Assembly: GCA_964519665.1 (NCBI GenBank)
Contig: CAZFIV010000012.1
Coordinates: forward strand, 44,814-108,813
DNA: 64,000 nt
Direction of reading: 5' to 3'
Origin: an uncultured Myxococcales bacterium
Lineage (GTDB): Bacteria > Myxococcota > Kuafuiibacteriia > Kuafuiibacteriales > Kuafuiibacteriaceae
In this document: piece after piece, positions 6,327 through 64,000 of the stretch
How the letters are laid out: the number at the start of each line of letters is the position of its first letter
Numbering within the stretch: position 1 is the stretch's first letter
Program-made: the position numbers and the translations under genes
The notes under the pieces: generated by a model
Seen by the model: the letters and a program-made list of their open reading frames with translations, nothing else
Database searches by the model: none
What the model was told of the DNA's origin: nothing

Positions 6327-6338
6327 CGTCAGGACCTT

Positions 6339-7871: not shown

Positions 7872-7883
7872 GATATCTCCGCG

Positions 7884-8978: not shown

Positions 8979-9140
8979 GACGGTCCGATATGGACGCACA
9001 ATGACTGTGTCAAGGTCCCGTCCAAACATCGCGGACCTTTTTCTAGACAGGATCAGGACAGCGGTGCCAGTGGTGTTCTTGGTCGCAGCGTCGACGTCAA
9101 CCGTGATTTCCCGACGCCCAACAAAGGTCTACGCGACGCC

Positions 9141-10349: not shown

Positions 10350-10368
10350 CAGGAATGTAGACTACATC
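10350..10368. promoter_or_regulatory. 19-bp divergent junction containing inverted repeat ATGTAG-A-CTACAT (candidate operator)
   Basis: Perfect 6-bp arms at 10355-10367 between the crtY GTG (10349) and the crtC ATG (10369). Confidence 0.4.
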
Positions 10369-11466: not shown

Positions 11467-12656
11467 TGCATCCCGTCGTCATTGTCTTGGGGCTCGCGTC
11501 GTTGGTCGTCCTGCTGCCCCTGACCCTGACTGTATTCAACATCCTGGTCTGGAGGCGGGGTCGACCCGACGGAAAGATCGATGGAACGGTGTCTATCCTC
11601 ATCCCCGCTCGAAACGAGGCTCGAAACATCGACGCCTGCCTGGCGGCGGTCCAGGCGAACCAGCATCCGGTATTGGAGATTCTGGTGTACGACGACGCGT
11701 CAACCGACGACACCGCCGACCGAGTGCTCGCTCGGGCCGAAGACGACCCTCGCATCCGAGTGCTGCGGGGGCGTGACCTTCCTCGTGGCTGGGTCGGCAA
11801 GTCTCACGGCTGCCATCGACTCGCATTGGCCGCTCGCGGTGATGTCCTGCTCTTCGTCGACGCCGACGTTCGCCTCGAAGCCGACGGCATCGCCCGATTA
11901 GGGAGCCAGTTCGAAGACCTGTCCGCCGATCTGGTCAGCGCGGTTCCGCGGCAGCAGATGCGAACGTGGGCCGAGCGGCTGGTTGTCCCCCTTCTGCACC
12001 TGACCTACACGAGTTGGCTACCCCTACCTCTCGTGTACGCGAGCCGCGACCCGCGGTTCTTGGCCGTCAACGGCCAGGTTCTCGCCATACGACGCTCCAC
12101 GTACGAATCGGTAGGCGGCTTCTCGGCCGTCAAGAACAGCGTCGTCGAGGACATGGCGTTTTGCAGCCTCGTCAAAAAGTCTGGCTTCCGCGTCACCTTC
12201 GTGGATGGGTTCCGAATCGCTCGCTGCCGAATGTATTCGGGTGCTCGCGAAGTCTGGGAAGGCTTTTCCAAGAATCTCTACCGGGGGTTAGGAGCGAAAC
12301 CCGTCGCGCTGATGAGCGTTCTCGCGCTGTACATCATCAGCTTCCTGGCGCCCTACGGCGTCGCGCTCTTCGCGTGGACCGCGCGAACCATGGGATGGAC
12401 GCTCTCGTTCGACGTCAATACCGTTCTGCTCGCGGCGACGGTCGGCGTATGCGCCAACTTCGTCTTGCGAGCGGTGCTGGCATGGCGTTTTCATCACCCG
12501 TGGTCGGGGGTGCTGTTGCAACCCGCGAGCGTGTTGGCCCTCGTGGCCATTGGCATCAATTCATTCATTTGGCATCAACGCGGCACCATCCGCTGGCGAG
12601 GCCGAGTCTACGGTAGTCAATCCGAGTTGACGACCACGGCGCCCCGCGCGCATTAA
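11463..12656 (+). CDS. GT2 glycosyltransferase, probable carotenoid glucosyltransferase
   Basis: N-terminal TM, ILIPARNEARNI, YDDAST, GKSHG, FVDAD and C-terminal TMs. ATGA overlap with crtC. Confidence 0.85.
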   Translation: MMHPVVIVLGLASLVVLLPLTLTVFNILVWRRGRPDGKIDGTVSILIPARNEARNIDACLAAVQANQHPVLEILVYDDASTDDTADRVLARAEDDPRIRVLRGRDLPRGWVGKSHGCHRLALAARGDVLLFVDADVRLEADGIARLGSQFEDLSADLVSAVPRQQMRTWAERLVVPLLHLTYTSWLPLPLVYASRDPRFLAVNGQVLAIRRSTYESVGGFSAVKNSVVEDMAFCSLVKKSGFRVTFVDGFRIARCRMYSGAREVWEGFSKNLYRGLGAKPVALMSVLALYIISFLAPYGVALFAWTARTMGWTLSFDVNTVLLAATVGVCANFVLRAVLAWRFHHPWSGVLLQPASVLALVAIGINSFIWHQRGTIRWRGRVYGSQSELTTTAPRAH

Positions 12657-12665
12657 GGAGTTGCT

Positions 12666-14165
12666 TTGACTGACGTTATCGTCATCGGCGCCGGGATTGG
12701 GGGACTCTCCGCGGCGATTTCGACTGCCGCCCGCGGTCACCGGGTCCGAGTGTTCGAAGCGAATACGCGGGCTGGCGGCAAAGCGGGCACCAGAATCATC
12801 GACGGCGTCGAGGTCGATACCGGCCCTAGCGTCGTCACGCTCCCCGAAGTCTTCGACGACCTCTTCAAGCTGGCCGGTTCCCGCCTCGAAGACGAGGTCT
12901 CGCTCCGGATCTCGACGCCGTCATTTCGGTATCGGTTCGCGGACGGGGTTCAACTCGACATGTTCCACGAGGTCGACGCCATGCTGGCCAGCATCGGTGC
13001 GACCCTGGGTTCCTCGGCGGCCGACGAAATGAACGCGTTCCTCAAGTACGCTCGGGAAGTCTGGGAGGCCGGCGCTCCGAACTTCGTGTACGGCAAGGCG
13101 CCGTCGTTCGGGCTGGTCTTGCGGCTCGGACTCACCCGCCTCAACGACGTGCGTCGAATCGACTCCATGCGGACGATGTACAAGGGCATCTGCGCGCACA
13201 TCCGTGAGCCCCACTTACGTTATCTGCTCGCTCGATACGCAACCTACAACGGCTCCAACGTGCTGACAGCACCCGCGACCCTCAACTGCATCGCACACGT
13301 TGAACTGGCCCTGGGCGGCTACGGCGTCGAGGGCGGGATCGCGGCCTTGGTCGAAGCCATGGTCCGCTGTGCCCGAAGGATGGGGGTGGAGTTCGCTTTC
13401 GAAACGCCGGTCCGCTCCATCGACGTGCGCAAGGGCCGAGTGGCTGGGGTGACGACCGAGCTCGGCGATTCCGTACCCGCGGCCAACGTGGTGGCCAACG
13501 CCGACGTCGGCCACGTCGCCACCCATCTGCTGCCCTCGTCTCATCGTCAGGTCGTGTCGGCTCCGACGCCCCCATCCATGTCCGGGTGGACGGGCATTCT
13601 TCGAGCCCAGCACGGCCCTGAGCCTCGTCCCGCCCATGCGGTCCTGTTCGCTGAAGAGTACCTCGAGGAATTCGTCGACATCTTCGACCGCGACCGGCCG
13701 CCCGAAACACCGACCGTATACTTGTGCGCACAGAAGACCTGTCACGGCCGCGCGGGATGGCCCGACGCCGAACCCGTCTTCGTCATGGCCAACTCTCCTG
13801 CGGAGCCCGAGAACGGAGTCCGCGACCCAGCGGTGTTCGAGGCCCTCGAGCGCCGGGTGCTCGACCGGCTGCGCCAAGCCGGTCTGATTCAGAACGGCGA
13901 CTCGCTCGTTTGGAGCCGGACGCCGACCGAGCTGGCGACCGCCTTTCCGGGCAGCCGAGGATCGATCTACGGGGCAGCTTCGAACAGCGCGACGGCGGCC
14001 TTCAAACGGCCGGCCAATCGAGTTCGGTCCCTGCCGGGCCTGTACTTGGCGAGCGGCAGCGCTCACCCCGGCGGCGGCTTGCCGCTTTGCGCCCTGTCCG
14101 GCGTGGCGGCCGCCAATGAGCTGGTTGCGGACAATGGTCACGGTACCCTGAGGGCCGTCTCGTGA
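12666..14165 (+). CDS. crtD: CrtI-family desaturase, probable 1-hydroxycarotenoid 3,4-desaturase
   Basis: IGAGIGGLSAA, DTGPSVVT and GLYLASGSAHPGGGLP. TTG start after AAGGAG. It is the second CrtI paralog and is linked to crtC. Confidence 0.75.
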   Translation: MTDVIVIGAGIGGLSAAISTAARGHRVRVFEANTRAGGKAGTRIIDGVEVDTGPSVVTLPEVFDDLFKLAGSRLEDEVSLRISTPSFRYRFADGVQLDMFHEVDAMLASIGATLGSSAADEMNAFLKYAREVWEAGAPNFVYGKAPSFGLVLRLGLTRLNDVRRIDSMRTMYKGICAHIREPHLRYLLARYATYNGSNVLTAPATLNCIAHVELALGGYGVEGGIAALVEAMVRCARRMGVEFAFETPVRSIDVRKGRVAGVTTELGDSVPAANVVANADVGHVATHLLPSSHRQVVSAPTPPSMSGWTGILRAQHGPEPRPAHAVLFAEEYLEEFVDIFDRDRPPETPTVYLCAQKTCHGRAGWPDAEPVFVMANSPAEPENGVRDPAVFEALERRVLDRLRQAGLIQNGDSLVWSRTPTELATAFPGSRGSIYGAASNSATAAFKRPANRVRSLPGLYLASGSAHPGGGLPLCALSGVAAANELVADNGHGTLRAVS

Positions 14166-14896
14166 GCCTGGAGCCGAGGCCTCCAGGCGCGGCTTGGGTG
14201 GGCACCATCGCCGCCCTGGCGATCATGGGTGCTTGGGTCGTTCACCTGGCCTGGTTGCTGAACCAACCGACGGTCTTTGTGTGGTGGGCCCCCGCGAGCG
14301 TGCTGGTCCAGACATTCCTACACACCGGGCTGTTCATCGTAGCCCACGACGGAATGCACGGCTCGATCGCCCCGGGCCACGAGCGGACGAACAAGGTCAT
14401 CGGTCAATCCTGCTTACTGATGTATGCTTTGTTTCCAATGGCTCCGCTCCTTCGGGCCCATATCGTGCACCACCGTTCCCCCGGAACCGCCGACGACCCC
14501 GACCACACCGGCGGCCGGCCGCTGGGTTACTTTCGTTGGTACCTCCGGTTCATGCTCCAGTACCTCCGGTGGTACCAGTTGCTCGGCATGGCGATGTTAT
14601 TCAACGCCGCCCATTATCTAGGCGGGATCGCCAACCCCAACTTGGTCGTCTTCTGGGTGGTTCCTTCTCTTCTGAGTACTTTTCAGCTCTTTACGTTCGG
14701 AACCTACATTCCGCACCGCGTCCCCCCGGGCGGTCATCGCGACCTTCACGCGGCCCGCTCGTCGAGCTGGCCTCATTGGCTGTCGCTTCTGACTTGTTAC
14801 CACTTCGGGTATCACTGGGAGCACCATCAGTACCCTGCCGTCCCTTGGTGGCGACTGCCCACATTCCATCGAATGACCCGCAACGCCGAGGGCTAG
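14162..14896 (+). CDS. crtW: beta-carotene ketolase (fatty-acid-desaturase family)
   Basis: His boxes HTGLFIVAHDGMHG, HIVHHR and HFGYHWEHH. Confidence 0.9.
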   Translation: MSLEPRPPGAAWVGTIAALAIMGAWVVHLAWLLNQPTVFVWWAPASVLVQTFLHTGLFIVAHDGMHGSIAPGHERTNKVIGQSCLLMYALFPMAPLLRAHIVHHRSPGTADDPDHTGGRPLGYFRWYLRFMLQYLRWYQLLGMAMLFNAAHYLGGIANPNLVVFWVVPSLLSTFQLFTFGTYIPHRVPPGGHRDLHAARSSSWPHWLSLLTCYHFGYHWEHHQYPAVPWWRLPTFHRMTRNAEG

Positions 14897-47030: not shown

Positions 47031-48044
47031 CTACGAGAGCCGACTTTCAACGACGGAGTCGATCGTCCGCAGGCCTTCTTCCGTGGCCGAGCAGCGAACC
47101 GCCCATCGGCGAGCCCGGGCAGCGGCGGCGGGCGGCGCGCGGTCGGCATAATCCGTGTAGAACCGGCGGGCGGTGACAAACCGGGCTCGAAGGCGACCGA
47201 TCAAGGGCCCGAGCGCTCCGTAGGTGGCGCCGCTCTTGAACGTGTTTACGAGAACCGTCCTCCGGGCGCCGAACCCGCCCGGCAGGCGATCTTCTCGGCC
47301 CACCGACCGTACTGCTTGCCGGCTCAAAAAAGCGCCCCCTCGGATGGGGGTCAGCAGGAGATCGGCGATGTCGCCGAGGCCGGTTTCGTCGGCCGCGAGC
47401 AAGGTCGCCCACGCCGATGAAGCGACCGGTTCAGCCTCGGCGAGGAGATTCGCAGCCTCGTCCGAAGACGGAAGATCACTTCGATGATGGTGCAAGAGCT
47501 CGGTGACCCGCTCCGCCCACATGCGGTAGAACGGAAAGTCACCGTTGTGCAGCGCTTCCGCCAACGCTGGCCACCACCAAAGAAGGTGGGCGTCGAGCAA
47601 CTCGATTTGCATCTGCTCGATGGCTGCGACCACCTCCGTTCGGGCGTCGACCCGGGCGTCGGCCTCCGCTCCGCACAGAAACGCCATCGCCTCCAGCAGC
47701 CAGCTGACATGGTCGGGCGTCGGTCCGGTCGGGTCGACGCGAAAGCCGATCCTCGAGAAGAATGCGGCAACGCGGTCGGTTTCCGGACCTCCCGGCATCG
47801 CGTCGTCCCCCAGAAAGACCCCCTGAAACGGAAAGATCTCGTGCACCAAAGCCTGGTAGTGCGCGGCCGAAGCACGGTCGAAGTCGACCGGACCGCCCGA
47901 CGTCGGGCGCCACCGGTCGATCTCGGACGCGAGCTCCGGCACCGCGTCAGCCAGCGGCATCAAGTCGGGCGTCCACCCTTGCCTCGCGATGGCAGCAAAC
48001 AACCCGTAAGCGCGACTTCGCGCCTCCGCCAGATGAGCTGACAT
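47031..48044 (-). CDS. TorD/DmsD-family molybdoenzyme maturation chaperone
   Basis: FPFQGVF, PDHVSWLLEAMAFL and LDAHLLWW; last gene of the Mo-enzyme operon. Confidence 0.85.
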   Translation of the reverse strand: MSAHLAEARSRAYGLFAAIARQGWTPDLMPLADAVPELASEIDRWRPTSGGPVDFDRASAAHYQALVHEIFPFQGVFLGDDAMPGGPETDRVAAFFSRIGFRVDPTGPTPDHVSWLLEAMAFLCGAEADARVDARTEVVAAIEQMQIELLDAHLLWWWPALAEALHNGDFPFYRMWAERVTELLHHHRSDLPSSDEAANLLAEAEPVASSAWATLLAADETGLGDIADLLLTPIRGGAFLSRQAVRSVGREDRLPGGFGARRTVLVNTFKSGATYGALGPLIGRLRARFVTARRFYTDYADRAPPAAAARARRWAVRCSATEEGLRTIDSVVESRLS

Positions 48045-48047
48045 GCA

Positions 48048-51041
48048 CTAGGAACGGCCAAAAGGCGCCGTGGGAAGAGCGTAGGTGGCTTTGCTCGGCT
48101 TGAGCGGCCGCTTGAGCCAGAACGGGCGCCGAGTGCCGTCGGGGCTGTGGTCGACGCTCGACCGCGTGAGCCCCACCCACTCCCGATACACCTGCATCGA
48201 CCGGTTCGTATCGACGTACACATCGCCGAACTTCTCGTTGCCTTGGGCCTTGCGCACGCTCACCGCCTTCTGCAGCCAGCAGTGCGCACCGCTGATCGGG
48301 TCGGGGTGCACGGCGTGGGTCAAGTTTTGGTGCACACCGACGTCTTCCCACCACACCCGCGCGGTATCGGGGTCGAAGCTCGAATAGGCCTTCGCGCCCT
48401 GCTTCACGGTGAGGGTGTGGCCGCCCGTTCCGTCCTCGGCGAGGCTGACCAGGTTCGACATACCGGGGTTCACGCCGGTGCCATCTTGCAGACGCCACCG
48501 TCCGAGGTGGTGGCTCATCGCGATCACCCCTGGCTTGATGCCTTCGGTCACCCACACTCGGTCGACGAAATAGCCGATCTCCGTCTCGACCCGAACGAGG
48601 TCGCCGGTCGCCACACCGAGACGGGTCGCGTCGACCGAATTCATCCACACCGGATTCTTGTGGCTGATCTCGTATAGCCACTTCGCGTTCGCGCTGCGGG
48701 TATGAATGAGGGTCGGAAGCCGGAAGTTGGGCAGCAACAGCATCTCGCCCCGGTCCCGATCGATGTGGCGGGGATGCACGTGGCTCTCCAGGGGCCACGG
48801 GACCGTGTATCGCTGCTCGGGCCAGCCCCAGTTGTGGAGCGTCGTACTGAAGAACTCCAACCGTCGACTCGGCGTCTCGAAGCCCTTGCACGCGTCACCG
48901 TCGACCATGAGACCCACTGCCGTGCCGTCGGATTTCAAGACCCGACCGCGCTCGTCGACGGTGGTCGCCCCCGTGTCGACCGGCTTCAGGTAAGGCGCGT
49001 AGTTCTCCTTCACCACCTCGAAGCAAGCATACTTGCGCATGTACTCGAGCGGCTTCAACCCCTCGGCGGCGGCCGCCTCGGGGAGGCCGGGTACGGAGTT
49101 CTCGAAGATCCACTGATAGTACTCGTCGACGGTGATGATCTCGCCGGACCGGAAAGGACTCTCAAAGTGCTGGCGAATGCCCAGCGAACCGTCCGGATCC
49201 ATGCGGTCGGACAGGTCGATCCACAGCTCATTCTCCTCCCAAACCTCGCCGGGATTCGCTTCGTAGGTCCGGTTGACCTTCTGCCCGAGCTTCTCCATCG
49301 CGACCCGACGGACCGGCTGCCGAAATCCAATCCATTGCCCAGCGTGGGTCTCCTGGCTCATGAGGTCGTGCCGCTCGCCGGCGTGACCCATCGGCAGCAC
49401 GTAGTCCGCAAACCAAGCGGACTCGTTCCACGTCGGCGTCAGAGCAACATGGAGCTTGAGTTTTTCTTCATCCCGAAGGGCCTTCAGCCACATGAATCCG
49501 TCGGGATTGATCCACATCGGGTTGTAGACCCGAGTAAAGTACACATCGACGTCACCTCGCCCTTCCTCGAGGAAGTGGGGCAACAGGAACGACATCTCAT
49601 AAAAGGCGAACGGCCACTCGTGGGGCAAATGCAGCTCGTTCCAGCTCTCGATGGCCGGCGGGACTTTGAACGGCTTGGGCACGAACTTGTTCCAACTGTT
49701 GCCCGATGTACCGCCCTTGGTACCGACCCCACCGGTCAGCACGCTCAAGAAGAATAGGCAGCGGGCGATCTGCCAGCCGCCGAGATTGCCGATGGTCGCC
49801 GAACGCCAGGTATGAGCGGCCAGCCGGCCCTCGCAGGCCGCTACCATCTCCGCCGCCTCGACGATCCGTTCAACGGGTACCAACGCTTCGTCGGCCGCTC
49901 GTTGGAAGGTAAAGGGCGCGTACAACGCCTTCAAGACCCGGTCGAAGACCTCGAAGTCGACGTCTCCGCGCTCTTCTCGAGCCCGCAGGAAGGCGACCTT
50001 GACTCCTTCATCGCTGTCGCTCTCGGGGAGCATCTGCAGATATTCTTGCCAGTTCGTCCACCGCCGGACGAACTCTTTGTCGTACAGATCGTTCTGAATC
50101 AGGTGGTTGGCGATGGCCAGCAACACCCACCCTTCACTGCCCGGCCACGTCGGCAACCACACGTCGCTCTTAGCCGCGGTGTTCGACAGCCGAGGGTCGA
50201 AGGTGATCAGTTTGGCCCCCTTCTCCTTGCCCTCGATGATCCGCTGAGCGTGAGGATTGAAGTAGTGACCGGTCTCGAGATGACTCGACACCAATAGAAT
50301 GCACCGGGCCTCGGAGTAGTCAGGGCTGGGTCGATCGAAACCGGCCCAGAAGTGGTAACCCGCCCGGGCGCTCGACGAGCAGATATTGGTGTGTGAGTTG
50401 TGACCGTCGACGCCCCACGCTTGAATGCAACGGTTGGTGTATCCGTCTTCGCCGGGCCGTCCGACGTGGTACATGATGCCATCGCGTCGACGCTGCCGGC
50501 TCTGCCGCATCTTGCCCGCGATGTCGTCGAGCGCCTCGTCCCAGGTGACCCGCTTCCACTTGCCCTCGCCGCGGGCACCCACCCGCTTGAGTGGATAGAG
50601 GATCCGCTCGGGGTCGTACACCTGGTTGTGGGTCGCCGGGCCCTTGGCGCAGTTGCGACCGCGGCTACCGGGGTGCACGGGGTTGCCTTCGAACTTCTTG
50701 ATCTCCAGCGTCGTTCGGTCGACGTAGGCCAGGAGACCGCAAGCGCTCTCGCAGTTGAAACAGATGGTTGGGATCAGCATGTACCGTCGCGGCACTCGGC
50801 GCGGCCAGGCCCGTGGATCCCACTCGACCCAATCGTCCCACTTTTCGGCCGGAGGATATTGGCTCATCCGGCCGTCAGGATGCTGGACGACGGTCAACTT
50901 GACCGGCTCTTGAGTGTGTTCCCCGAACGACGGAAGGTCTTGTCCGCCTACGTTGGTCGGCGCACGTCCTGCGGGGCGCGGCGTAACGCGAGACCGCCCC
51001 ATGAGGCGATCTAGAAACGAAGGTGCCGTATAACCTGCCAT
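48048..51041 (-). CDS. DMSO-reductase-family molybdopterin oxidoreductase, catalytic subunit, no Tat signal
   Basis: CFNCESACG...C [4Fe-4S] motif, RILYPLKR, HNSHTNICSS (probable Cys ligand), DPRLS, DYVLP and C-terminal VWMNSVDA. No RRxF motif in the N-terminus. Confidence 0.92.
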   Translation of the reverse strand: MAGYTAPSFLDRLMGRSRVTPRPAGRAPTNVGGQDLPSFGEHTQEPVKLTVVQHPDGRMSQYPPAEKWDDWVEWDPRAWPRRVPRRYMLIPTICFNCESACGLLAYVDRTTLEIKKFEGNPVHPGSRGRNCAKGPATHNQVYDPERILYPLKRVGARGEGKWKRVTWDEALDDIAGKMRQSRQRRRDGIMYHVGRPGEDGYTNRCIQAWGVDGHNSHTNICSSSARAGYHFWAGFDRPSPDYSEARCILLVSSHLETGHYFNPHAQRIIEGKEKGAKLITFDPRLSNTAAKSDVWLPTWPGSEGWVLLAIANHLIQNDLYDKEFVRRWTNWQEYLQMLPESDSDEGVKVAFLRAREERGDVDFEVFDRVLKALYAPFTFQRAADEALVPVERIVEAAEMVAACEGRLAAHTWRSATIGNLGGWQIARCLFFLSVLTGGVGTKGGTSGNSWNKFVPKPFKVPPAIESWNELHLPHEWPFAFYEMSFLLPHFLEEGRGDVDVYFTRVYNPMWINPDGFMWLKALRDEEKLKLHVALTPTWNESAWFADYVLPMGHAGERHDLMSQETHAGQWIGFRQPVRRVAMEKLGQKVNRTYEANPGEVWEENELWIDLSDRMDPDGSLGIRQHFESPFRSGEIITVDEYYQWIFENSVPGLPEAAAAEGLKPLEYMRKYACFEVVKENYAPYLKPVDTGATTVDERGRVLKSDGTAVGLMVDGDACKGFETPSRRLEFFSTTLHNWGWPEQRYTVPWPLESHVHPRHIDRDRGEMLLLPNFRLPTLIHTRSANAKWLYEISHKNPVWMNSVDATRLGVATGDLVRVETEIGYFVDRVWVTEGIKPGVIAMSHHLGRWRLQDGTGVNPGMSNLVSLAEDGTGGHTLTVKQGAKAYSSFDPDTARVWWEDVGVHQNLTHAVHPDPISGAHCWLQKAVSVRKAQGNEKFGDVYVDTNRSMQVYREWVGLTRSSVDHSPDGTRRPFWLKRPLKPSKATYALPTAPFGRS

Positions 51042-51048
51042 GTGGTCC

Positions 51049-52719
51049 TCAGGAGTTCGGGATGTGTTGGGGCGCCATTACGAACGCGTATTCGAACCAA
51101 TAGAGGCCGGCGATCACCGCGACCGCGGCCGCGCCGGCTAGAACCGGAGATGAACCGAGCAGCAGCAACCCGAACGGAACCAGGTGGCCCACCAAGACGC
51201 TGCCCGTCCAAAAGTGATGGCGATACTTGCCCCGTGTAATGTCGTGAGCGGCGGCCGCGGCCACGTCGGTCGCGTGGGGCATGCCGAACTCGCCGACCAG
51301 GGTCACGAACAGGTCGACGCCGAGGCTGACCATCCAGACCCACCACACCAACGACATCAACCCCTCGGGCGCGTCGAGCACCACGGACAGCAGGCCGAGC
51401 GTTGCTGCGCCCACCATGAGCGCTTGAATCAGAAGATGAGCCGGCAGCAAGGTGCTCTGCCAAAGGTCGCGGCCCTCGGCCTGGCCGAAGAGGAAGGCCG
51501 TGTACACGGCCGTGCCCACCGCCAACGGAGTCCCCGCTGCGAGAAGAGCGGTGCGCGCCGTCGCGACCGAATCCGTCCACCCGAAATAGGCCGCCGCTTC
51601 CACCAGCAACCACAGGCCCGCGACGACCGAAAAGCCGATCAGAATGAACGCGCCGCGCACCAACCAGCTTCGCCACTGCGGAAACCGAAGAATGCTCAGA
51701 AAGCGGGTTGGACGCTCGAGATCATAAATGAGAAGCGCGGTCGTCACGCCGATCGACCCGACCGACACTGCGGCGGCCAGCAACGCATAGGGCGCGTCGC
51801 CGCCGAGGGGCATGAGCCCGAGCCCCCACGCCACCGCCATGATCAGGAAGATGCCCGCGCCGATGCCCTTGGTGACCAGATACGCCGGCACCGGCCAGTG
51901 CCAAGGCACGTGATGCTGGGCGTTGTAGCCCACCTGAACCATATGCTCGGCCATGCGACCGGGCGCGAGCTGAATGGGACCACCGGCGGGGTGACCTTGG
52001 TCGGCGGCCGACCGAATCGGGGTGCCCGACGGGGCGCGCCCGAGCTCCGGTTCTGCCTCTGCGCCGGCGTGAAGGGGGCCGTTCGAGCCCGGCGTTCCGT
52101 ATTCGGCCTCCGACACGACCTCCGCCCACATGAAGGTAGACGGGGTCGCGGTCGCGGTCGGAGTCAGAGCGACCGCGTCACCATCGATGTAAAAGAGCTT
52201 CGGCCCGGTCCCTTGTTCCGGCTTGCGAACCGCGACCTTCTCTTTGGTCAACACTCGGCTTATTTCGGAGGCCGGATCGTCGAGGTCGCCGGCGATGATC
52301 GCGTGCTCCGGACAGACCACCACGCAGGCCGGCTCCAGGCCCAGGTCCGTGCGGTGCGAGCAAAAGTGGCACTTGCTGGCGGTGCCTGAATTCGGGTCGA
52401 TGTGAATGGCATCGTACGGACACGCCTGCAGACAGGCTTTGCATCCGATGCAGCGATCCGGGTCGAACTCGACGATGCCATCGTGGCGCTGGTACATCGC
52501 GGTGACCGGGCAGATGCGAACACACGGAGGGTTCGCGCAGTGGTTGCATCGCGTCACTTGAAATGTGCGCTGGGTGTTGGGGTACTGGCCGTGCTCCGTG
52601 TATTTGACCCACGTCCGATACACGCCCAGCGGCACTTCGTTTTCGCTTTTGCAGGCCGTCGAACAGGCGTGACAGCCAATGCAAGTGCGGTTGTTGATGA
52701 CAAACCCGAAGTTCGGCAC
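51049..52719 (-). CDS. fused NrfC/DmsB-type 4x[4Fe-4S] protein and NrfD/PsrC-type membrane anchor
   Basis: CIGCHACSTAC, CNHCANPPCVRICP, CIGCKACLQACP and KCHFC...CVVVCP, then WHWPVPAYL, DLERP and about 8 TMs. GGAG RBS before GTG 52719. Confidence 0.92.
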   Translation of the reverse strand: MPNFGFVINNRTCIGCHACSTACKSENEVPLGVYRTWVKYTEHGQYPNTQRTFQVTRCNHCANPPCVRICPVTAMYQRHDGIVEFDPDRCIGCKACLQACPYDAIHIDPNSGTASKCHFCSHRTDLGLEPACVVVCPEHAIIAGDLDDPASEISRVLTKEKVAVRKPEQGTGPKLFYIDGDAVALTPTATATPSTFMWAEVVSEAEYGTPGSNGPLHAGAEAEPELGRAPSGTPIRSAADQGHPAGGPIQLAPGRMAEHMVQVGYNAQHHVPWHWPVPAYLVTKGIGAGIFLIMAVAWGLGLMPLGGDAPYALLAAAVSVGSIGVTTALLIYDLERPTRFLSILRFPQWRSWLVRGAFILIGFSVVAGLWLLVEAAAYFGWTDSVATARTALLAAGTPLAVGTAVYTAFLFGQAEGRDLWQSTLLPAHLLIQALMVGAATLGLLSVVLDAPEGLMSLVWWVWMVSLGVDLFVTLVGEFGMPHATDVAAAAAHDITRGKYRHHFWTGSVLVGHLVPFGLLLLGSSPVLAGAAAVAVIAGLYWFEYAFVMAPQHIPNS

Positions 52720-52743
52720 GAGGGCTCCTCCGAACGACGTCGA

Positions 52744-52759
52744 CGCAAAGGTTGTGCCG
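52744..52759 (-). promoter_or_regulatory. sigma54 (-24/-12) promoter for the Mo-enzyme operon
   Basis: Minus strand CGGCACAACCTTTGCG = GG-N10-GC, with GC ~26 nt upstream of the GTG. Confidence 0.7.
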
Positions 52760-52878
52760 TTCCTCACGACGCTGCATCGCGCCCGCCCATGTCGCCGCTG
52801 TTTCAGAGCTTTGAACCATCGGTGCTACCTTTATGAAACGGTGGTGAGGTTGCCGCTCACTTGGGCAACGGTCGCCGC

Positions 52879-52894
52879 CGGCACGCGGCTTGCG
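52879..52894 (+). promoter_or_regulatory. sigma54 (-24/-12) promoter for the persulfide dioxygenase gene
   Basis: CGGCACGCGGCTTGCG = GGCACG-N4-TTGC, ~60 nt upstream of the ATG. Confidence 0.7.
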
Positions 52895-52952
52895 ACCGCG
52901 GCCTCGACGCACGGTTCAGTCGAGTTTCGCTAGACCGATCAGGAGGCCCACT

Positions 52953-53969
52953 ATGCTCTTCAGGCAGCTCTTCGACGCTCAGTCATGCACATATAGCTAT
53001 CTTCTTGCGGACGCTTCCGGTGCCGCGGTGCTCATCGATCCCGTCCTCGAGCAGGCCGAACGCGACATCCAGCTGATCAAGGAGCTCGGCCTAGAGCTGG
53101 TGCACACGATCGAGACACATGTTCACGCCGACCACGTGACTGCCTCCGGCGTCCTTAGAAATCGCTTGGGCAGCCGAAGTGTCATGTCGCGGCACGCGGG
53201 GGTCGGCTGCGCCGACGTCATGATCGGCGACGGCGACATCGTCTCGTGCGGCGAATTGCGGCTGGAAGTGCGACAGACGCCTGGCCACACCGTGGAGTCC
53301 ATTTGTTTGGTCACCGAAGACAAGAAGATGGCTTTTACGGGTGACACCCTTTTGATTCGAGGATGCGGCCGCACCGACTTTCAAGCCGGTTCTCCGCAGG
53401 AACTCTACCGCTCGGTGCACACCAAGATCTTTTCGCTTCCGGACGGCTGTCTCCTGTACCCGGGCCACGACTACAAGGGCCGGACCGTCACCACCGTGGG
53501 CGAAGAGAAGGCTCACAACCCGCGCTTGGGGGGCGGAAAGACCGAGGCTGAGTTCGTCGAGATCATGAACAACCTCAACCTGCCCCGCCCCAAGCTGATC
53601 GACGAGGCCGTTCCGGCCAACCAGCAGTGCGGATTCGAGCGGCCGTCGATCAGTCGATCCAGCGACGGCGTTCCGGAAGTCAGCGTCGACTGGGTGCGGG
53701 CGAACCAAGGAACCGTCCGGTTGATCGACGTGCGAAGCGAAGCCGAGTTCAACGGCGAACTCGGTCACATCGACGGCGCAGAGCTGGTGGAGCTCGAAAC
53801 CGTGGCCGCCACCGCCGCCGACTGGAACCGCGACCAGACCATCGTCATGATCTGTCGCAGCGGTGGGCGTTCGGGTCGGGCGGCCAAGGCCCTCGAAGAG
53901 ATGGGCTTCAAGAACGTCACCTCGATGGCCGGCGGCATGCTCGCCTGGAACCAGCGGGCCGCTTCGTAG
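52953..53969 (+). CDS. persulfide dioxygenase (ETHE1-like MBL fold) fused to rhodanese
   Basis: AGGAGG RBS, MLFRQLFD, ETHVHADH, TPGHT, FTGDTLLIRGCGRTDF, PGHDY and C-terminal CRSGGRS. Confidence 0.92.
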   Translation: MLFRQLFDAQSCTYSYLLADASGAAVLIDPVLEQAERDIQLIKELGLELVHTIETHVHADHVTASGVLRNRLGSRSVMSRHAGVGCADVMIGDGDIVSCGELRLEVRQTPGHTVESICLVTEDKKMAFTGDTLLIRGCGRTDFQAGSPQELYRSVHTKIFSLPDGCLLYPGHDYKGRTVTTVGEEKAHNPRLGGGKTEAEFVEIMNNLNLPRPKLIDEAVPANQQCGFERPSISRSSDGVPEVSVDWVRANQGTVRLIDVRSEAEFNGELGHIDGAELVELETVAATAADWNRDQTIVMICRSGGRSGRAAKALEEMGFKNVTSMAGGMLAWNQRAAS

Positions 53970-55067: not shown

Positions 55068-55718
55068 TCAGCTCGCGAGGACGCCGATCGGGCAGGAGAC
55101 CCCGGTGCCACCGAGACCGCAATAACCACCCGGATTCTTGGCGAGGTACTGTTGGTGGTAGTCCTCGGCGAAGTAGTACGGGGGAGCGTCCAGGATCTCG
55201 GTCGTGATGTCACCGTAGCCGGCCTCACCCAACTTGGCGGCGAACATCGCCTTCGATTCCAGGGCAGCCGCTTTCTGCTCGGCCGAGTACGTATAGATGC
55301 CCGACCGGTACTGGGTACCCACGTCGTTTCCCTGCTGCATGCCCTGGGTCGGATCGTGGCTCTCCCAGAAGATCTTGAGCATCTCGAGATAGCTGGTCTT
55401 CTCTGGATCGAAGACCACTTGGACCACTTCGTTGTGCCCCGTCATTCCGCTGCACACCTCGCGGTAAGTCGGGTTGGGCGTGTGGCCGGCGGCGTAGCCG
55501 ACCGAGGTCGTGTAGACGCCCGGCGCCTCCCAGAACTTACGCTCGGCCCCCCAAAAGCAGCCCATGCCGAACATCGCGGTCTTCGTGCCTTCGGGGAACG
55601 GAGGCTTCAGCGGCGTACCGAGCACGAAGTGCTGAGCCGGGACCGGCATCGGTTCGGCCCGGCCCGGAAGCGCCTGGTCGGCGGAGGGGATCTGAAGCTT
55701 CTTCGTGCTAAAGAACAT
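55068..55718 (-). CDS. msrA: peptide-methionine (S)-S-oxide reductase
   Basis: [22 protein letters not shown] and AEDYHQQY. Confidence 0.97.
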
Positions 55719-61515: not shown

Positions 61516-62451
61516 TCATGCAGCCGCGCGAATCTCGTCGGTCGCCGTGAGCAACGAACCCAGATTTCTCAGATGGCTTTCCACCGCCGAGGCGCCTAGC
61601 TTGCGTGCGAGCTTCTTCACCAAGGCCGGCGGATAGGCCGACCGCAACATTTTCTTGCCGTTCGACGTCAGCACGCAGTGCACAATTCGCGCATCGTTAG
61701 CGTCGTCACGTTTCTCGATGAGGCCTTTGGTCTCGATGGCCTTTAGGGTTTGGGAGACCGTCCCCTTGGTGAGGTCGAGGTGCCGGCTCAGCCCGGACGG
61801 GGTGTCGGAGTTTTCTTCGCAGCTGGCCAGGTACTGAAGGGCCTCCAGCTGCACCAGCTTCAGCCCCTGGGCGGTCGCCAACTGCCGAATCTCGGCGCGA
61901 AAGATGCTGCCCAACCGGCACATGCTCTCGGAGAGATCGATGACCAACTCGGTCTCTTTACCCCGGCTTCGCTGCTTGCACGCCTTGCATTCACCGCATC
62001 GGTCGAACGCCTTTTGCTGCCGAATGGTCTGCGCCTCTGCGATAAGTGCCCGGAGGCCTGTCAACAGTGCTTTCGCCTGCCGCGGCCCTAGGCTTCGTTC
62101 GAGCTTTCTGACGAACGGCGGCACCTGCGTCGACCGCGCTATCTTACGGCCGGCCATCGTCAGCTCGCAGTGCACGATCCGAGCGTCTGCATCGTCGCCG
62201 TACTTTTCGATGAGACCTTTGGCTTCGAGCGCCTTCAGAGTCTGGGACACCGTTCCTTTGGTCAGGTCGAGGTACTCACTGAGTCCGGCTGGCGTCCGGC
62301 TGAAGTGCAAACACGACGCCAGATAATGGATGGCCTCGAGCTGGACGAGCTTGAGCCGATGGGCGGTCCCTTGCTGACGCATTTCCGCTCGAACGACGGT
62401 CGCGAGACGGCCGAGGTGTTCACAGAGAGAAGCGACGGTCACGGCGGGCAA
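61516..62451 (-). CDS. tandem (duplicated) MarR-family regulator
   Basis: Two units, each with LKLVQLEA(I/L)xYLASC...TP.GLS..LDLTKGTVSQTLKA...KGLIEK..D..DARIVHC.LT; the linker has CGECKAC. Confidence 0.9.
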   Translation of the reverse strand: MPAVTVASLCEHLGRLATVVRAEMRQQGTAHRLKLVQLEAIHYLASCLHFSRTPAGLSEYLDLTKGTVSQTLKALEAKGLIEKYGDDADARIVHCELTMAGRKIARSTQVPPFVRKLERSLGPRQAKALLTGLRALIAEAQTIRQQKAFDRCGECKACKQRSRGKETELVIDLSESMCRLGSIFRAEIRQLATAQGLKLVQLEALQYLASCEENSDTPSGLSRHLDLTKGTVSQTLKAIETKGLIEKRDDANDARIVHCVLTSNGKKMLRSAYPPALVKKLARKLGASAVESHLRNLGSLLTATDEIRAAA

Positions 62452-62569
62452 GGTAGCGACTCAGAACTTGGCTGGCAACGCCTCCCCGGTGAGTTCATGT
62501 TTCGGTCACGCGCCCTTCGCATGATTGGTCGGTCTGTGTCGTCAACGCCCCGCCAAGAACTCACTTGGA

Positions 62570-62935
62570 CTACTCAACGTTACGAAACAGGAAGCGACTA
62601 AAGAAATGTCGATTCCGAGCCACGATGTAGTAGCCAAGCTCGACGAACCAGATGAAGGGCACCCACCCCATGACTCGCGCAAACCAACGAAAGCCGACTT
62701 GCGATAGGATAAACAGGGACGCCCGACCTGCTTTGAGGACCCGTCCATCACTGGTGATGACATGCATCGCCCGACCGCACGCTTCGCGCAGCTCGGGAGT
62801 CATCGGTGGTGACGGCGCTTCTTGGTAGGGCACCGCCTCGAAGCATTCGCTTCCTTCTTGCAGCCTGACCCAGGCTACCGACCGGCGTCAGAAGCCTCAG
62901 TCGCCATCCCAAAGGATGTAGTGCTTTCGTTCCAC
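62570..62935 (-). CDS. DCC/DUF393 thiol-disulfide oxidoreductase with two in-frame UGA codons (candidate UxxU selenoprotein)
   Basis: GTG 62935 reads VERKHYILWDGD*GF*RRSVAWVRLQEGSECFEAVPYQ... in frame with the truncated ORF 62570..62833 (AMHVITSDGRV..G...ELGYYIVARNR). The TGAs at 62899-62897 and 62890-62888 sit at both Cys positions of DxxCxxC. An in-frame TAG 4 codons upstream fixes the start. Confidence 0.8.
62860..62878 (-). promoter_or_regulatory. candidate bacterial SECIS hairpin
   Basis: mRNA GUAGCCUG-GGU-CAGGCUGC (8 bp including one U.G pair, G-rich loop), starting 9 nt after the second UGA. Confidence 0.65.
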
Positions 62936-63027
62936 ACCTGAAGCCTAGCAGCCCGCCTTCCGCCGATCACTACCTGTTCGACCCGAAGCGGAATCTCAAA
63001 CCGCCCGCTGCATGCGCCCGCTATTCG

Positions 63028-63405
63028 CTACGCCCTCGGACTGGCCGCCTGAGCGCGAATAGCTTGCCGAGTGGTCTCGACCGTCTCGAACAGGAAAGCG
63101 ACCGCTTCGCCGACCTCCTCGCGCTGACGTACCATCAGCGACGCCGCCCCGGAGGCGGTCGGTATGCTCAGTGGCGACCGACGCGGCGGCACCCACAGTC
63201 CCGAGATATCGATCCGGACCCCGCCTTTGCGCGACCGAAGCCGCAGATACGCAAGCGCTCGGCCATCGCAGTCGAGGCGACGGTAAGGGGGCGGACCCGG
63301 TGTCATGACGATGCCTTCGAAGATCCGTTCGCCACTATGGGTGACGACTCGAATGATCTCGTTCATCCACTGCCGAAGGTCCCGATTCTGTTCATCGCTA
63401 TTCAT
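63028..63405 (-). CDS. hypothetical protein
   Basis: AAGGAG RBS before ATG 63405; protein-like composition (YRRLDCDGRALAYLR). Confidence 0.7.
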   Translation of the reverse strand: MNSDEQNRDLRQWMNEIIRVVTHSGERIFEGIVMTPGPPPYRRLDCDGRALAYLRLRSRKGGVRIDISGLWVPPRRSPLSIPTASGAASLMVRQREEVGEAVAFLFETVETTRQAIRAQAASPRA

Positions 63406-63856
63406 AGTGAATCTCCTTACTGACGAGCCGACTCGAGACATCGCAGGTTTCGGGCCAGAGCCCGGCTTCGAGCGGCGGAGGTTCAACCGGTATCGGGGAC
63501 GGTCACGCTTCGCAGGACCCCGCGAAATCACAAGCATTGTGACGTTTCGACCTTCGGCCGCTCAGCGCTTCGTCGTCCGACCGCCACGCGTCAACGCTGA
63601 ACCGAATCGATTTCCGTCCGTCCATCCGATTTCCGACGAACACCTACCCGACGGTTCGGACCTGCCAAGCTCGAGCGCTGACGGGTCGACCGCCGGTCGG
63701 TATAGCGATGCGTTGGACGAGGTCAGATCGACGAACGGGCCGAAAGAGATCGGCGTCGGGGGCACAAGGAGACAGAAACGGCGCTCGATGGGGGCCGCGA
63801 GGCAGGGACGCAACGTTGGCCATCATCAGCTGACGTCCAACGATGCGCACCGCTCG

Positions 63857-63895
63857 AAGGGTCGGCGGCGGCCGGGCGGCGCCCGCCGAGCCCTT
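63857..63895 (-). terminator. GC-rich hairpin downstream of the partial minus-strand gene
   Basis: AAGGG-TCGGCGG...CCGCCGA-G-CCCTT stem with one bulge. Confidence 0.4.
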
Positions 63896-63907
63896 ACGAA
63901 GCCGACC

Positions 63908-63970
63908 GGCTACTCGGGCTACTCGGGCTACTCGGGCTACTCGGGCTACTCGGGCTACTCGGGCTACTCG
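63908..63970. repeat. 9-bp tandem repeat (GGCTACTCG) x7
   Basis: Seven exact copies counted directly. Confidence 0.97.
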
Positions 63971-64000
63971 TCGTCGTCATCGTCATCGTCGTCGTCGTCG
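63964..64000 (-). CDS. C-terminal end of a gene entering from the right (poly-Asp tail)
   Basis: The minus strand reads GAC/GAT x10, GAG, TAG = DDDDDDDDDDE*. Confidence 0.65.
   Translation of the reverse strand, partial: DDDDDDDDDDE

Follow-up and report, generated by a model that had tools for sequence, protein, structure and literature searches.

Examination of the 64,000-nucleotide stretch of DNA analysed here (the window, taken at its full length) revealed on its minus strand a gene coding for a thiol-disulfide oxidoreductase with two UGA codons in its reading frame, together with a downstream neighbour coding for a regulator. Relatives of this gene are referred to by their motif, namely UxxU (both UGAs), UxxC (UGA1 only), CxxU (UGA2 only) and CxxC.

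62570..62935, minus strand: DCC1-like (DUF393) thiol-disulfide oxidoreductase gene of 121 codons and a TAG stop, with a GTG start at 62935

61516..62451, minus strand: gene on the downstream side of the DCC gene, for a regulator bearing two MarR domains; the nearest relative (L003) shows synteny of the pair

62897..62899, minus strand: UGA1, codon 13, at the first Cys of the CxxC motif; TGA in 68 UxxU and 17 UxxC distinct relatives

62888..62890, minus strand: UGA2, codon 16, at the second Cys of the CxxC motif; TGA in 68 UxxU relatives and 1 CxxU relative

A search of the DCC1-like protein against Pfam, with Cys written in at both UGA positions, gave a match to PF04134 (E=3.4e-14, 54.5 bits for a cut-off of 27.8) that covers residues 7-113 and spans profile positions 1-111, the N-terminal CxxC region included. 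No NCBIfam model matches the protein, and therefore no curated selenoprotein family covers it. Alignment with 25 homologues places the two UGAs exactly on the invariant C13 and C16. The translated redox motif is U-G-F-U where C-x-x-C is expected, and the DCC motif D-x-x-C-x-x-C reads W-D-G-D-U-G-F-U, which is complete only if the UGAs are decoded as selenocysteine (Sec) or cysteine. Gene callers shorten the gene to a product of 77 amino acids starting at Met45 (P0013). An assembly check found the DNA to be identical between contigs from two separate sequencing runs of one stromatolite metagenome. The MarR-domain regulator shares 77% identity with its counterpart in L003, where the gene order is the same.

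The reading frame is open on both sides of the motif throughout the family. In each of the 63 UxxU genes whose 3' end is complete, the frame stays open for 103-140 codons past the motif, as it does in the Cys forms, and an in-frame start is found upstream in 68 of 68 UxxU forms. TGA is the ordinary stop of 22 of the 41 long ORFs in the window and 33 of these 63 UxxU genes themselves terminate with it, so that a local recoding signal is needed; a global reassignment of UGA was rejected, as TGA ends most of the long window ORFs and half of the UxxU genes. One true pseudogene was encountered among the relatives (L135, in which TAG stands in place of the Trp codon and the stem is broken). A codon-position GC scan of the window for other genes with an in-frame TGA returned a sole plausible candidate, TGA 54081, which was dismissed: it sits just upstream of an ordinary ATG start followed by a signal peptide.

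Across the two UGAs and beyond them, the minus strand reads ...GAC UGA GGC UUC UGA CGCCGGUCG GUAGCCUG GGU CAGGCUGC AAG..., in which a spacer and the three parts of a hairpin can be distinguished.

62879..62887, minus strand: spacer CGCCGGUCG, 9 nt from UGA2 to the stem base, without conserved pairing

62871..62878, minus strand: 5' arm of the hairpin, GUAGCCUG, codons Val-Ala-Trp (alignment columns 37-44)

62868..62870, minus strand: apical loop GGU, formed by the third base of the Trp codon and the first two bases of the Val codon

62860..62867, minus strand: 3' arm of the hairpin, CAGGCUGC, comprising the third base of the Val codon, Arg AGG, Leu CUG and the first base of a Gln codon

This hairpin (62878-62860) is 19 nt long, with 8 bp and a GGU loop, and has a dG of -11.1 kcal/mol when folded alone. 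Its stem base begins 9 nt past UGA2 and 18 nt past UGA1, and its loop 17 nt past UGA2 and 26 nt past UGA1. The first-pass annotation had described a GUAGCCUG-GGU-CAGGCUGC hairpin past UGA2 with its loop at these two distances, and both the coordinates and the 8-bp stem bear this out. Comparable hairpins (stem of at least 8 bp, G in the first two loop positions, loop 16-37 nt downstream of TGA) follow 3.9% of the 1572 TGA triplets on both strands of the window; for this reason the hairpin is only suggestive in a single sequence, and its significance derives from the comparative data.

According to the passages of PMC13188914 that set out the bacterial SECIS (bSECIS) model of Zhang and Gladyshev (2005), implemented in bSECISearch, the upper stem has 4-16 bp, the loop has 3-9 nt with a G in one of its first two positions, usually followed by G or U, the loop lies 16-37 nt from the UGA and the dG is -7.5 kcal/mol or lower. 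The hairpin falls within all of these limits (8 bp, 3-nt loop, first-position G, 17 and 26 nt, -11.1 kcal/mol). The range of 16-37 nt cited in the earlier annotation agrees with that model, and the two distances observed both lie inside it. Further attributes expected of a bSECIS are also present, namely UGAs aligned with Cys, an ORF intact on both sides, covariation in Sec forms and loss of the stem in Cys forms. A cmscan of 62000-64000 (E<=10) gave no match to the Rfam SECIS families (SECIS_1 to SECIS_5) at 62860-62899. Elsewhere in the scanned region, a match to SECIS_2 at 63221-63275 (22.9 bits for a gathering threshold of 70) was dismissed, as it lies in the upstream ORF with no in-frame UGA before it.

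A longer structure that excludes the 19-nt hairpin can be drawn over the same region.

62862..62905, minus strand: alternative long hairpin, with both UGAs in its stem and a GCCG loop

In a free RNA of 66 nt the 5' arm is paired to the UGA region in the minimum free energy fold (-29.6 kcal/mol versus -26.5), and with this rival fold 3.1 kcal/mol more stable the 19-nt hairpin has a probability of only about 0.7%. Its probability rises to about 1.0 once a stretch of 12 nt or more, starting at the first base of either UGA, is occluded to model the decoding ribosome, and with the ribosome modelled on either UGA it is the dominant fold in 63-64 of the 68 UxxU forms. The earlier statement that the mRNA folds as this hairpin consequently holds for RNA in which the UGA region is occluded and fails for the free 66-nt RNA. 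The long hairpin is not predicted in the family consensus (RNAalifold, 86 relatives), and the stretch from UGA1 through the hairpin is identical solely in L003. As a functional element the long hairpin was rejected, being unconserved and incompatible with the decoding of either UGA.

Public genomes and metagenomes provided 86 distinct UGA-containing relatives, of which 68 are UxxU, 17 UxxC and 1 CxxU; because the pattern used to gather the metagenome set demanded UGA1, the frequencies of the forms are biased, and the hairpin region lay outside that pattern. One relative, L012, sits on a complete chromosome (OZ241372.1). The hairpin occupies an identical, ungapped register in all of them, with stems of 6-8 pairs. 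The first G of the loop is invariant, and its second G and U are each at least 90% conserved among the 86 sequences. Over 83 distinct UGA-containing rows, whose record labels name several phyla, the paired share of cells is 92.8%; sliding the 3' partners by 1-3 columns lowers it to 14.5-40.8%, and shuffling to 84.3%. Five of the eight stem pairs have changed on both sides (77 cells in the 83 rows), and the covariation score of 0.303 was reached by none of 500 shuffles. For example, CG occurs at pair 42-50 in 49 sequences and UA in 31, and at pair 38-54 there are 37 sequences with UA and 32 with CG. Unconstrained RNAalifold prediction on the 86 relatives returned the 19-nt hairpin and no second conserved structure, both over 72 columns and over the 75 nt from UGA1. 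The mean dG of the UxxU forms is -11.1 kcal/mol, with 68 of 68 at or below -7.5. The 17 distinct UxxC forms, whose identity to UxxU forms reaches 90% over a segment of 42 residues, and the single CxxU form have the same hairpin in the same register. Weakened stems do occur among the UGA forms, with a G.A mismatch in five UxxC contigs and an internal mismatch combined with a GAC loop in three UxxU contigs.

The Cys forms lack the hairpin. Among 67 CxxC relatives the paired share of cells is 50.7%, which corresponds to chance and equals that of the shuffled and slid controls; no consensus hairpin is predicted, the mean dG is -2.8 kcal/mol and only 2 of 67 reach -7.5 or below. The stem is degenerate even in the closest CxxC forms, which are 79% identical over the 42-residue segment. 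Synonymous sites are constrained in the Sec forms only. The Arg codon is AGG or AGA in 50 of 50 Sec forms versus CGN in nine of ten Cys forms, all 86 UGA-containing forms have C as the last base of the codon that follows Trp, and the third base of the Ala codon, C or U, changes in step with AGG or AAG on the other side of the stem. As regards the comparisons proposed in the first-pass annotation, compensatory changes were thus found in the orthologues at five of eight pairs, the hairpin is retained in UGA-containing orthologues (92.8% of cells in the 83 rows) and it is not equally conserved in Cys-only homologues (50.7%). Its claim that no second comparable hairpin lies between the two UGAs is likewise upheld by the single hairpin that RNAalifold yields for the 86 relatives.

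Taken with the spacing, these comparisons make it probable that the 19-nt hairpin at 62878-62860 is a bSECIS and the only recoding signal for both in-frame UGAs. Since forms with a single UGA of either kind have the same hairpin and no other conserved structure, one bacterial SECIS most likely serves both codons, and the earlier suggestion that a single cis element directs two Sec insertions finds support in the comparative data.

The way in which one element could act twice may be outlined as follows. We infer that SelB binds, that the hairpin is used twice in succession and which residue is inserted. The approaching ribosome would unwind any competing upstream pairing, allowing the hairpin to form just outside the mRNA entrance, where SelB-GTP carrying Sec-tRNA(Sec) would bind the G-G-U loop and the upper stem. 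A first delivery would take place with UGA1 in the A site and the loop 26 nt downstream. Three codons on, with UGA2 in the A site, the hairpin would still be intact because its stem base lies 9 nt beyond the A-site codon; the melting of the element by the ribosome, which had been raised earlier as a difficulty, would not be needed between the two events. A second SelB ternary complex on the same hairpin, its loop now 17 nt downstream, would insert the second residue in competition with RF2, and the ribosome would then translate the hairpin itself as Val-Ala-Trp-Val-Arg-Leu. The predicted product has a selenium-containing UxxU redox centre.

The 64-kb window and 1.1 Mb of related loci yielded neither selA, selB nor selD, and no gene for tRNA-Sec. 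Scanning 40 ORFs of the window with Pfam gave no sel gene, tblastn with SelD and SelA probes had no match in the window and the 1.1 Mb of loci, and ARAGORN, run on the window and 60 related loci, detected a single tRNA-Val and no tRNA gene in the window. The lack of sel genes near the DCC gene says little, as linkage is not required.

Several other explanations of the two UGAs and the hairpin have to be weighed against a SECIS that directs two Sec insertions. One of them retains the hairpin and SelB and supposes that a SelB-compatible tRNA(ReC) (selC*) reads one UGA, or both, as cysteine, in which case the mature protein would be CxxC, CxxU or UxxC and the cis element would still serve two codons. 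Genes resembling tRNA-ReC are present in about 56% of the genomes with UXXU hydrogenases as compared with about 2.3% of other Sec-type genomes, with five of five Armatimonadota among the former, and in the presence of such a tRNA either or both UGAs may be read as Cys (PMC13582414); one of the UxxU DCC genes, L005, comes from an Armatimonadota (Chthonomonadaceae) MAG. However, there is no tRNA gene in the window and no Sec-type tRNA near the related genes, which leaves this explanation without positive support, and a recoding to Cys has no evident gain over UGC, yet UGA and hairpin are kept in 86 distinct sequences. We regard it as rather unlikely. It is improbable that the hairpin acts as a SECIS for UGA2 alone, with UGA1 passed by near-cognate read-through or by means of an unrecognised second element. 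The distance from UGA2, which is 9 nt to the stem base and 10-11 nt to the part of the stem (6-7 bp) that most forms conserve, fits the 11 nt of the minimal E. coli SECIS, while UGA1 lies 9 nt further away. Nevertheless, the 26 nt separating UGA1 from the loop are within the 16-37 nt of the bSECIS model, the 17 distinct UxxC forms, in which UGA1 is the only UGA, keep the hairpin in its register with no other consensus structure, and the 75 nt following UGA1 contain no second conserved structure.

The two remaining alternatives deny the RNA element altogether. The codons of a nearly invariant Trp and a common Val supply the loop and some of the stem, and the main stem variants, GCC...GGC and GCU...AGC, largely track two clades, so that the hairpin might be thought a by-product of protein conservation (Ala-Trp-Val-Arg/Lys within one clade) or of shared ancestry. 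This is very improbable in view of the synonymous positions, which are fixed or covarying in UGA forms only, of the Cys forms L046, L056, L058, L007 and L014, which encode A-W-V-K or W-V-R without forming the stem, and of the slid controls, which preserve relatedness and drop to 41% paired or less. A pseudogene, or a gene whose real product is a 77-aa C-terminal fragment, with the hairpin a chance feature, would agree with the start of the automatically annotated protein at Met45 (P0013) and with the 3.9% of window TGA triplets that precede a comparable hairpin. Both interruptions, however, are TGA and sit exactly at the two catalytic Cys positions; in an unbiased genome set (10 genomes) these positions have TGA only, never TAA or TAG; the N-terminal part is in frame with a start codon in 68 of 68 UxxU forms; and L135 illustrates what real decay looks like, with its TAG at the Trp codon and broken stem. 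We attach next to no probability to this last explanation.

Comparison with known systems places a hairpin that would direct two Sec insertions in a wider context. Like other elements described by the bSECIS model, it is a stem-loop of the coding region just past an in-frame UGA, with a small loop in which G is followed by G. It differs in being minimal (19 nt, with a perfect stem and neither an internal loop nor a conserved lower stem) and in that a single copy puts two UGAs 9 nt apart in the allowed range, UGA2 being near the limit (17 for a minimum of 16). The SECIS of E. coli fdhF reportedly begins directly after the UGA, with a long lower stem starting at the UGA itself, and its minimal upper stem-loop, 11 nt away, has a bulged U and a GGUC tetraloop (Heider et al. 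1992; Liu et al. 1998; later structural work). The spacing of about 11 nt previously attributed to fdhF hence applies to the minimal upper stem-loop and not to the whole SECIS. Both elements are hairpins within the ORF, 3' of the UGA, with an apical G-U, and they share G-G-U-C across the loop and closing base as well as an upper stem about 10-11 nt after the UGA, here UGA2. The DCC1-like hairpin has a triloop rather than a tetraloop, lacks the bulged U and the long lower stem, and would serve a pair of codons, of which one is some 19-20 nt away from the conserved stem. SECIS spacing is strict in E. coli, and a literature search for experiments on two UGA codons and SelB gave nothing relevant, hence no experimental precedent for two spacings 9 nt apart.

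In eukaryotes, selenoprotein L reportedly contains a UxxU motif for which a diselenide was proposed (Shchedrina et al. 2007). Selenoprotein L and the eukaryotic selenoproteins with multiple Sec residues resemble the DCC1-like gene in the UxxU motif and in having one SECIS for more than one UGA. Eukaryotic SECIS elements lie in the 3' UTR, act at a distance via SBP2/EFSec and are never traversed by the ribosome, whereas the DCC1-like element is in the ORF, 9 nt from UGA2, and is itself translated.

Among bacteria, UxxU motifs are listed for several predicted selenoprotein families (PMC13188914, PMC2398784), including a Prx-like thiol:disulfide oxidoreductase, an FmdB-family protein and a protein that binds metal, putatively a mercuric reductase (PMC13188914 Table 1; PMC2398784). 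These have in common with the DCC1-like protein a CxxC-type redox or metal-binding motif with both Cys replaced by Sec, but their folds and families are unrelated to it. For the UXXU hydrogenases, a single SECIS for both UGAs has been raised (PMC13582414, 2026). The hydrogenases share with the DCC1-like family UGAs in place of the CXXC cysteines, CXXU, UXXC and UXXU variants within one family, and a downstream SECIS-like hairpin with a G in its loop (PMC13582414). There the motif binds the metal of a hydrogenase, while here it belongs to a small thiol-disulfide oxidoreductase; close Cys forms of the hydrogenases also form SECIS-like structures, in contrast to DCC1-like Cys forms, which lack the stem; and in the DCC1-like family single-UGA forms of both kinds share an ungapped hairpin register, accompanied by covariation statistics. 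The arrangement, which had been called mechanistically unusual, is therefore less so than stated, given the known UxxU families and the shared SECIS already raised in PMC13582414. The DCC1-like gene adds a further family to the bacterial selenoproteins for which such an arrangement has been described before. The text of the 2026 inventory (PMC13188914), which covers 119 prokaryotic selenoprotein families, does not mention this family (PF04134/DUF393/YuxK), and a literature search for a link between DUF393 or DCC and selenoproteins found nothing relevant.

The usual picture of bacterial SECIS elements gives each UGA its own hairpin, a fixed short distance away. Through its ungapped register, its compensatory changes and its natural single-UGA controls, the DCC1-like family provides unusually clean comparative evidence that one minimal hairpin can serve a UGA at two spacings (17 and 26 nt) as well as both codons of a single mRNA, and renders testable the questions of SECIS spacing tolerance, of SelB reloading and of the efficiency cost of two consecutive recodings. 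On balance, we favour the view that DCC1-like (DUF393) proteins from metagenomes and MAGs of several labelled phyla constitute an unrecognised selenoprotein family with a two-selenium, possibly diselenide, UxxU centre, in which a 19-nt SECIS is reused for UGAs 9 nt apart. Other UGA-containing relatives are likely to be shortened by automatic gene calling as well. Public selenoproteome counts for soil and mat bacteria are probably too low, because gene calling truncates such genes and the family is missing from the text of the 119-family inventory (2026). Finally, if this view is correct, the CxxC / CxxU / UxxC / UxxU series with its fixed hairpin register would be a ready-made system that could gauge the reach of the bacterial SECIS and the reloading of SelB between close insertions.

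The two in-frame TGA codons belong to a reverse-strand gene that opens past a TAG (62947-62945), starts at GTG 62935, stops at TAG 62572-62570 and translates as MERKHYILWDGD*GF*RRSVAWVRLQEGSECFEAVPYQEAPSPPMTPELREACGRAMHV...FRNVE (*, TGA). With Cys entered at both TGA positions, residues 7-113 matched Pfam PF04134 (DCC1-like thiol-disulfide oxidoreductase, DUF393) at 54.5 bits, the cut-off being 27.8. In an alignment with 25 of the nearest database proteins (53-64% identity) both TGAs align with C13 and C16, the invariant cysteines of the family CxxC motif. Because of the two TGAs, gene callers report only P0013, a 77-amino acid fragment from Met45 of the DCC gene (62570-62935, minus strand). 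The DNA of the locus was identical in contigs of two separate stromatolite metagenome runs. The elements concerned are:

62899-62897 (-), UGA1, in-frame TGA
62890-62888 (-), UGA2, in-frame TGA
62878-62860 (-), hairpin GUAGCCUG-GGU-CAGGCUGC, from 9 nt past UGA2
62862-62905 (-), alternative long imperfect hairpin, minimum-energy fold of the free RNA (-29.6 kcal/mol, z = -2.86)

The isolated 19-nt element folds into 8 bp and a triloop at -11.1 kcal/mol, and the first-pass annotation correctly placed its loop 17 nt from UGA2 and 26 nt from UGA1. Taken singly, the hairpin is only mildly unusual, as 3.9% of the window's 1572 TGA triplets have a comparable one (stem of at least 8 bp, G in the first two loop positions) at 16-37 nt. 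It satisfies every published bSECIS constraint on loop length, stem length, first-position loop G, spacing (16-37 nt) and dG (<= -7.5), as quoted in PMC13188914. No Rfam SECIS model matches it. The SECIS of fdhF has a bulged U, which the stem of the window hairpin lacks.

The earlier statement that the mRNA folds in this way holds for the isolated element, or when the UGA region is occluded, but not for the free 66-nt RNA. There the alternative, longer hairpin is favoured (-29.6 vs -26.5 kcal/mol); it pairs the UGA1/UGA2 segment with the 5' arm of the SECIS-like hairpin, holds both UGAs in its stem, excludes the SECIS-like hairpin and leaves it a probability of about 0.7%. The bases needed by the alternative fold sit within a ribosome decoding either UGA, and occluding at least 12 nt, counted from the start of either UGA codon, brings the SECIS-like hairpin to a probability of about 1.0. 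From UGA1 through the hairpin, only the nearest relative, the Myxococcota MAG contig L003, has the identical sequence, and the alternative fold showed no conservation across the family.

Relatives, typed by the form of their redox motif (U, in-frame UGA), came from two scans. The genome scan covered one genome per species with two peptide patterns, of which P[YF]QxAPSPPM does not depend on the redox motif, and the best 80 of 233 related genes were kept. Seventy-eight of these 80 were typed as 8 UxxU, 1 CxxU (L042) and 69 CxxC, the window's own gene being a ninth UxxU. According to record titles, the UxxU genes derive from Myxococcota, Chthonomonadaceae, Anaerolineae and one MAG labelled Enterobacteriaceae, and the CxxU gene from a MAG labelled Actinomycetes. 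Locus L072 (CAYTLW010000056.1), with a UxxU DCC gene and hairpin in a MAG labelled 'uncultured Enterobacteriaceae bacterium', bears an odd label among Myxococcota-like relatives, which may be a binning or labelling error. The metagenome scan, with the pattern W-D-G-x-TGA-G-x-TG[A/C/T] and downstream sequence unconstrained, added many further UxxU and at least 20 UxxC contigs. After deduplication, the distinct 90-nt segments comprised at least 68 UxxU, at least 17 UxxC, 1 CxxU and 67 CxxC.

The UGA-containing DCC genes are intact. Motif interruptions in the typed genome loci (best 80 of 233) were TGA in every case, with neither TAA nor TAG at the motif positions among the 78. Among the matches listed, the 63 UxxU genes whose 3' end is complete all remain open for 103-140 codons past the motif (median 105; Cys forms, 103-130, median 106), 33 of these 63 use TGA as their own stop, and an in-frame start lies upstream in 68/68 UxxU genes. 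The UxxC locus L135 (112-183), in which TAG replaces the Trp codon of the hairpin, the stem is broken and the frame closes 5 codons past the motif, is likely a pseudogene that illustrates how decay of a DCC gene looks.

Among the matches listed, 86 UGA-containing segments aligned without gaps, and the stem (columns 37-44 against 48-55) showed standard pairs in 92.8% of its cells over 83 distinct rows, compared with 84.3% in shuffles and 14.5-40.8% after the 3' partners had been slid by 1-3 columns. Two-sided changes occurred in 5 of the 8 stem pairs (77 cells), and the covariation score of 0.303 was matched by 0/500 shuffles. Pair 42-50 alternates between C-G (n = 49) and U-A (n = 31), pair 38-54 between U-A (n = 37) and C-G (n = 32), and pair 41-51 between C-G (n = 78) and U-A (n = 5), while pair 39-53 occurs as C-G, U-A, U-G and A-U. 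RNAalifold, run without an input structure, returned the hairpin as its sole prediction both in the 72 columns and in the 75 nt from UGA1. The consensus hairpin was absent from the 67 Cys forms, with 50.7% of stem cells paired (shuffles, 50.5%; slid controls no different). Covariation in UGA-containing relatives and stem loss in Cys homologues, which the first-pass annotation had proposed looking for, were both seen.

Predicted folding energy of the 19-nt segment by motif form
UxxU (matches listed): mean -11.1 kcal/mol; <= -7.5 in 68/68
UxxC (matches listed): mean -9.0 kcal/mol; <= -7.5 in 13/17
CxxU: -12.5 kcal/mol; <= -7.5 in 1/1
CxxC: mean -2.8 kcal/mol; <= -7.5 in 2/67

Weakened stems were observed in five UxxC loci (L105, L122, L130, L132 and L159), where the third pair counted from the loop is a G.A mismatch, and in three UxxU loci (L142, L144 and L199), which combine an internal G.G mismatch with a GAC loop. 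Such relatives may be tolerated variants or decaying genes.

Codon choice indicates that the constraint acts on the RNA rather than on the peptide. Among the matches listed, Arg in the 3' arm is encoded by AGG or AGA in 50/50 Sec forms, and by CGN in 9 of the 10 Cys forms that have Arg there. Directly after Trp, 86/86 listed Sec forms use a codon ending in C, while Cys forms vary; at the next codon 40 Sec forms have CGA, and Cys forms mostly have CGC. In the Ala codon (GCC/GCU), the third base covaries with AGG/AAG of the opposite arm. Cys forms encoding the same A-W-V-K or W-V-R (e.g. L046, L056, L058, L007, L014) do not form the stem.

The single-UGA forms are the natural counterpart of the single-UGA reporters suggested earlier. 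UxxC forms, with UGA1 only, carry the hairpin (typically GUCGCUUG-GGU-CAAGCGAC) 26 nt from the UGA, with its register unchanged, and no other consensus structure was found in them; in the CxxU form, with UGA2 only, it lies 17 nt from the UGA. Among the matches listed, UxxC forms share up to 90% identity with UxxU forms over the 42-residue post-motif segment, with the hairpin unchanged, and the closest CxxC forms share 79%, with a degenerate stem. One hairpin position therefore accompanies UGA at either site or at both. The observation itself is confirmed, and its reading as one SECIS for two UGAs is supported in silico.

Counted from the P site, toeprints lie at +16 and the helicase acts near +11, so that about 9 nt past the A-site codon lie within the ribosome. 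When UGA2 occupies the A site, the 9-nt spacer would fill this space and the stem base would stand at the mRNA entrance; with UGA1 there, the stem would lie 9 nt further out. The hairpin would thus not need to melt between the two decodings, and would be unwound only later, on translation as Val-Ala-Trp-Val-Arg-Leu. As each SelB carries one tRNA, two ternary complexes in succession would have to share the one hairpin within three codons, each step competing with RF2, and a failed insertion would release a peptide of 12 or 15 residues.

The inserted residue may be selenocysteine or cysteine. According to PMC13582414, tRNA(ReC), which decodes SECIS-dependent UGA as Cys, is enriched in genomes with UXXU hydrogenases, where either UGA or both may then be read as Cys. 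No tRNA genes were found in the window, no sel genes among its 40 scanned ORFs, and no Sec machinery genes in 1.1 Mb flanking the related genes.

The window shares synteny with L003, neighbours being 45-91% identical and in the same order, which makes the organism most probably one of the Myxococcota, as far as the label of that MAG can be trusted. Other features are:

61516-62451 (-), MarR-type regulator carrying two MarR domains in tandem, next gene downstream from DCC
63028-63405 (-), 125-amino acid ORF without Pfam match, upstream of the DCC gene
63908-63970, perfect tandem repeat, 9-nt unit GGCTACTCG, 7 copies
after 63970 to the window end (64000), TCG repeat, 3-nt unit
5334-14896, carotenoid-type cluster: phytoene synthase, two phytoene desaturase-like amine oxidases, polyprenyl synthetase, lycopene cyclase, a glycosyltransferase and a fatty-acid-desaturase-like gene
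47031-52767 (-), operon-like set: 997-amino acid molybdopterin oxidoreductase, fused 4Fe-4S/NrfD membrane protein, NarJ-like chaperone
52890-53969, metallo-beta-lactamase/rhodanese fusion, near this set
55068-55718, Cys-type MsrA, also near it

The domains of the MarR regulator (77% identity, same position in L003) are joined by a segment with C-G-E-C-K-A-C, and the regulator may be functionally linked to the DCC protein through redox sensing. The upstream ORF is 91% identical in L003, above the 68% of the DCC gene. A sub-threshold Rfam SECIS_2 match within it (63221-63275, minus strand; 22.9 bits, gathering score 70, E = 0.18) was rejected as chance; this ORF has no in-frame UGA. On the minus strand, 63908-64000 reads as short ORFs with runs of repeated Ser-Pro-Ser and of Asp/Thr. 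The catalytic subunit of the molybdopterin oxidoreductase has no in-frame UGA.

The first-pass annotation regarded one SECIS serving two UGAs as mechanistically unusual. UxxU proteins were described from ocean metagenomes in 2008 (PMC2398784), Table 1 of PMC13188914 gives UxxU motifs for Prx-like oxidoreductases, an FmdB-family protein and a metal-binding protein, and a single downstream SECIS for both UGAs of UXXU was raised in September 2026 for Group 4 [NiFeSe] hydrogenases (PMC13582414). The arrangement is therefore already known, but the DCC family offers an unusually clean case: the evidence is cleaner here, with an ungapped register, stemless Cys forms and single-UGA forms of both kinds. 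The text of PMC13188914, with its 119-family table, does not contain DCC, DUF393, PF04134 or YuxK, NCBIfam has no model for the DCC protein, and a literature search found no paper tying the family to selenoproteins. DCC would thus be a new, putative selenoprotein family. Its UGA-containing members are expected to be truncated by gene callers as in the window, and the family is therefore probably under-annotated in public protein sets.
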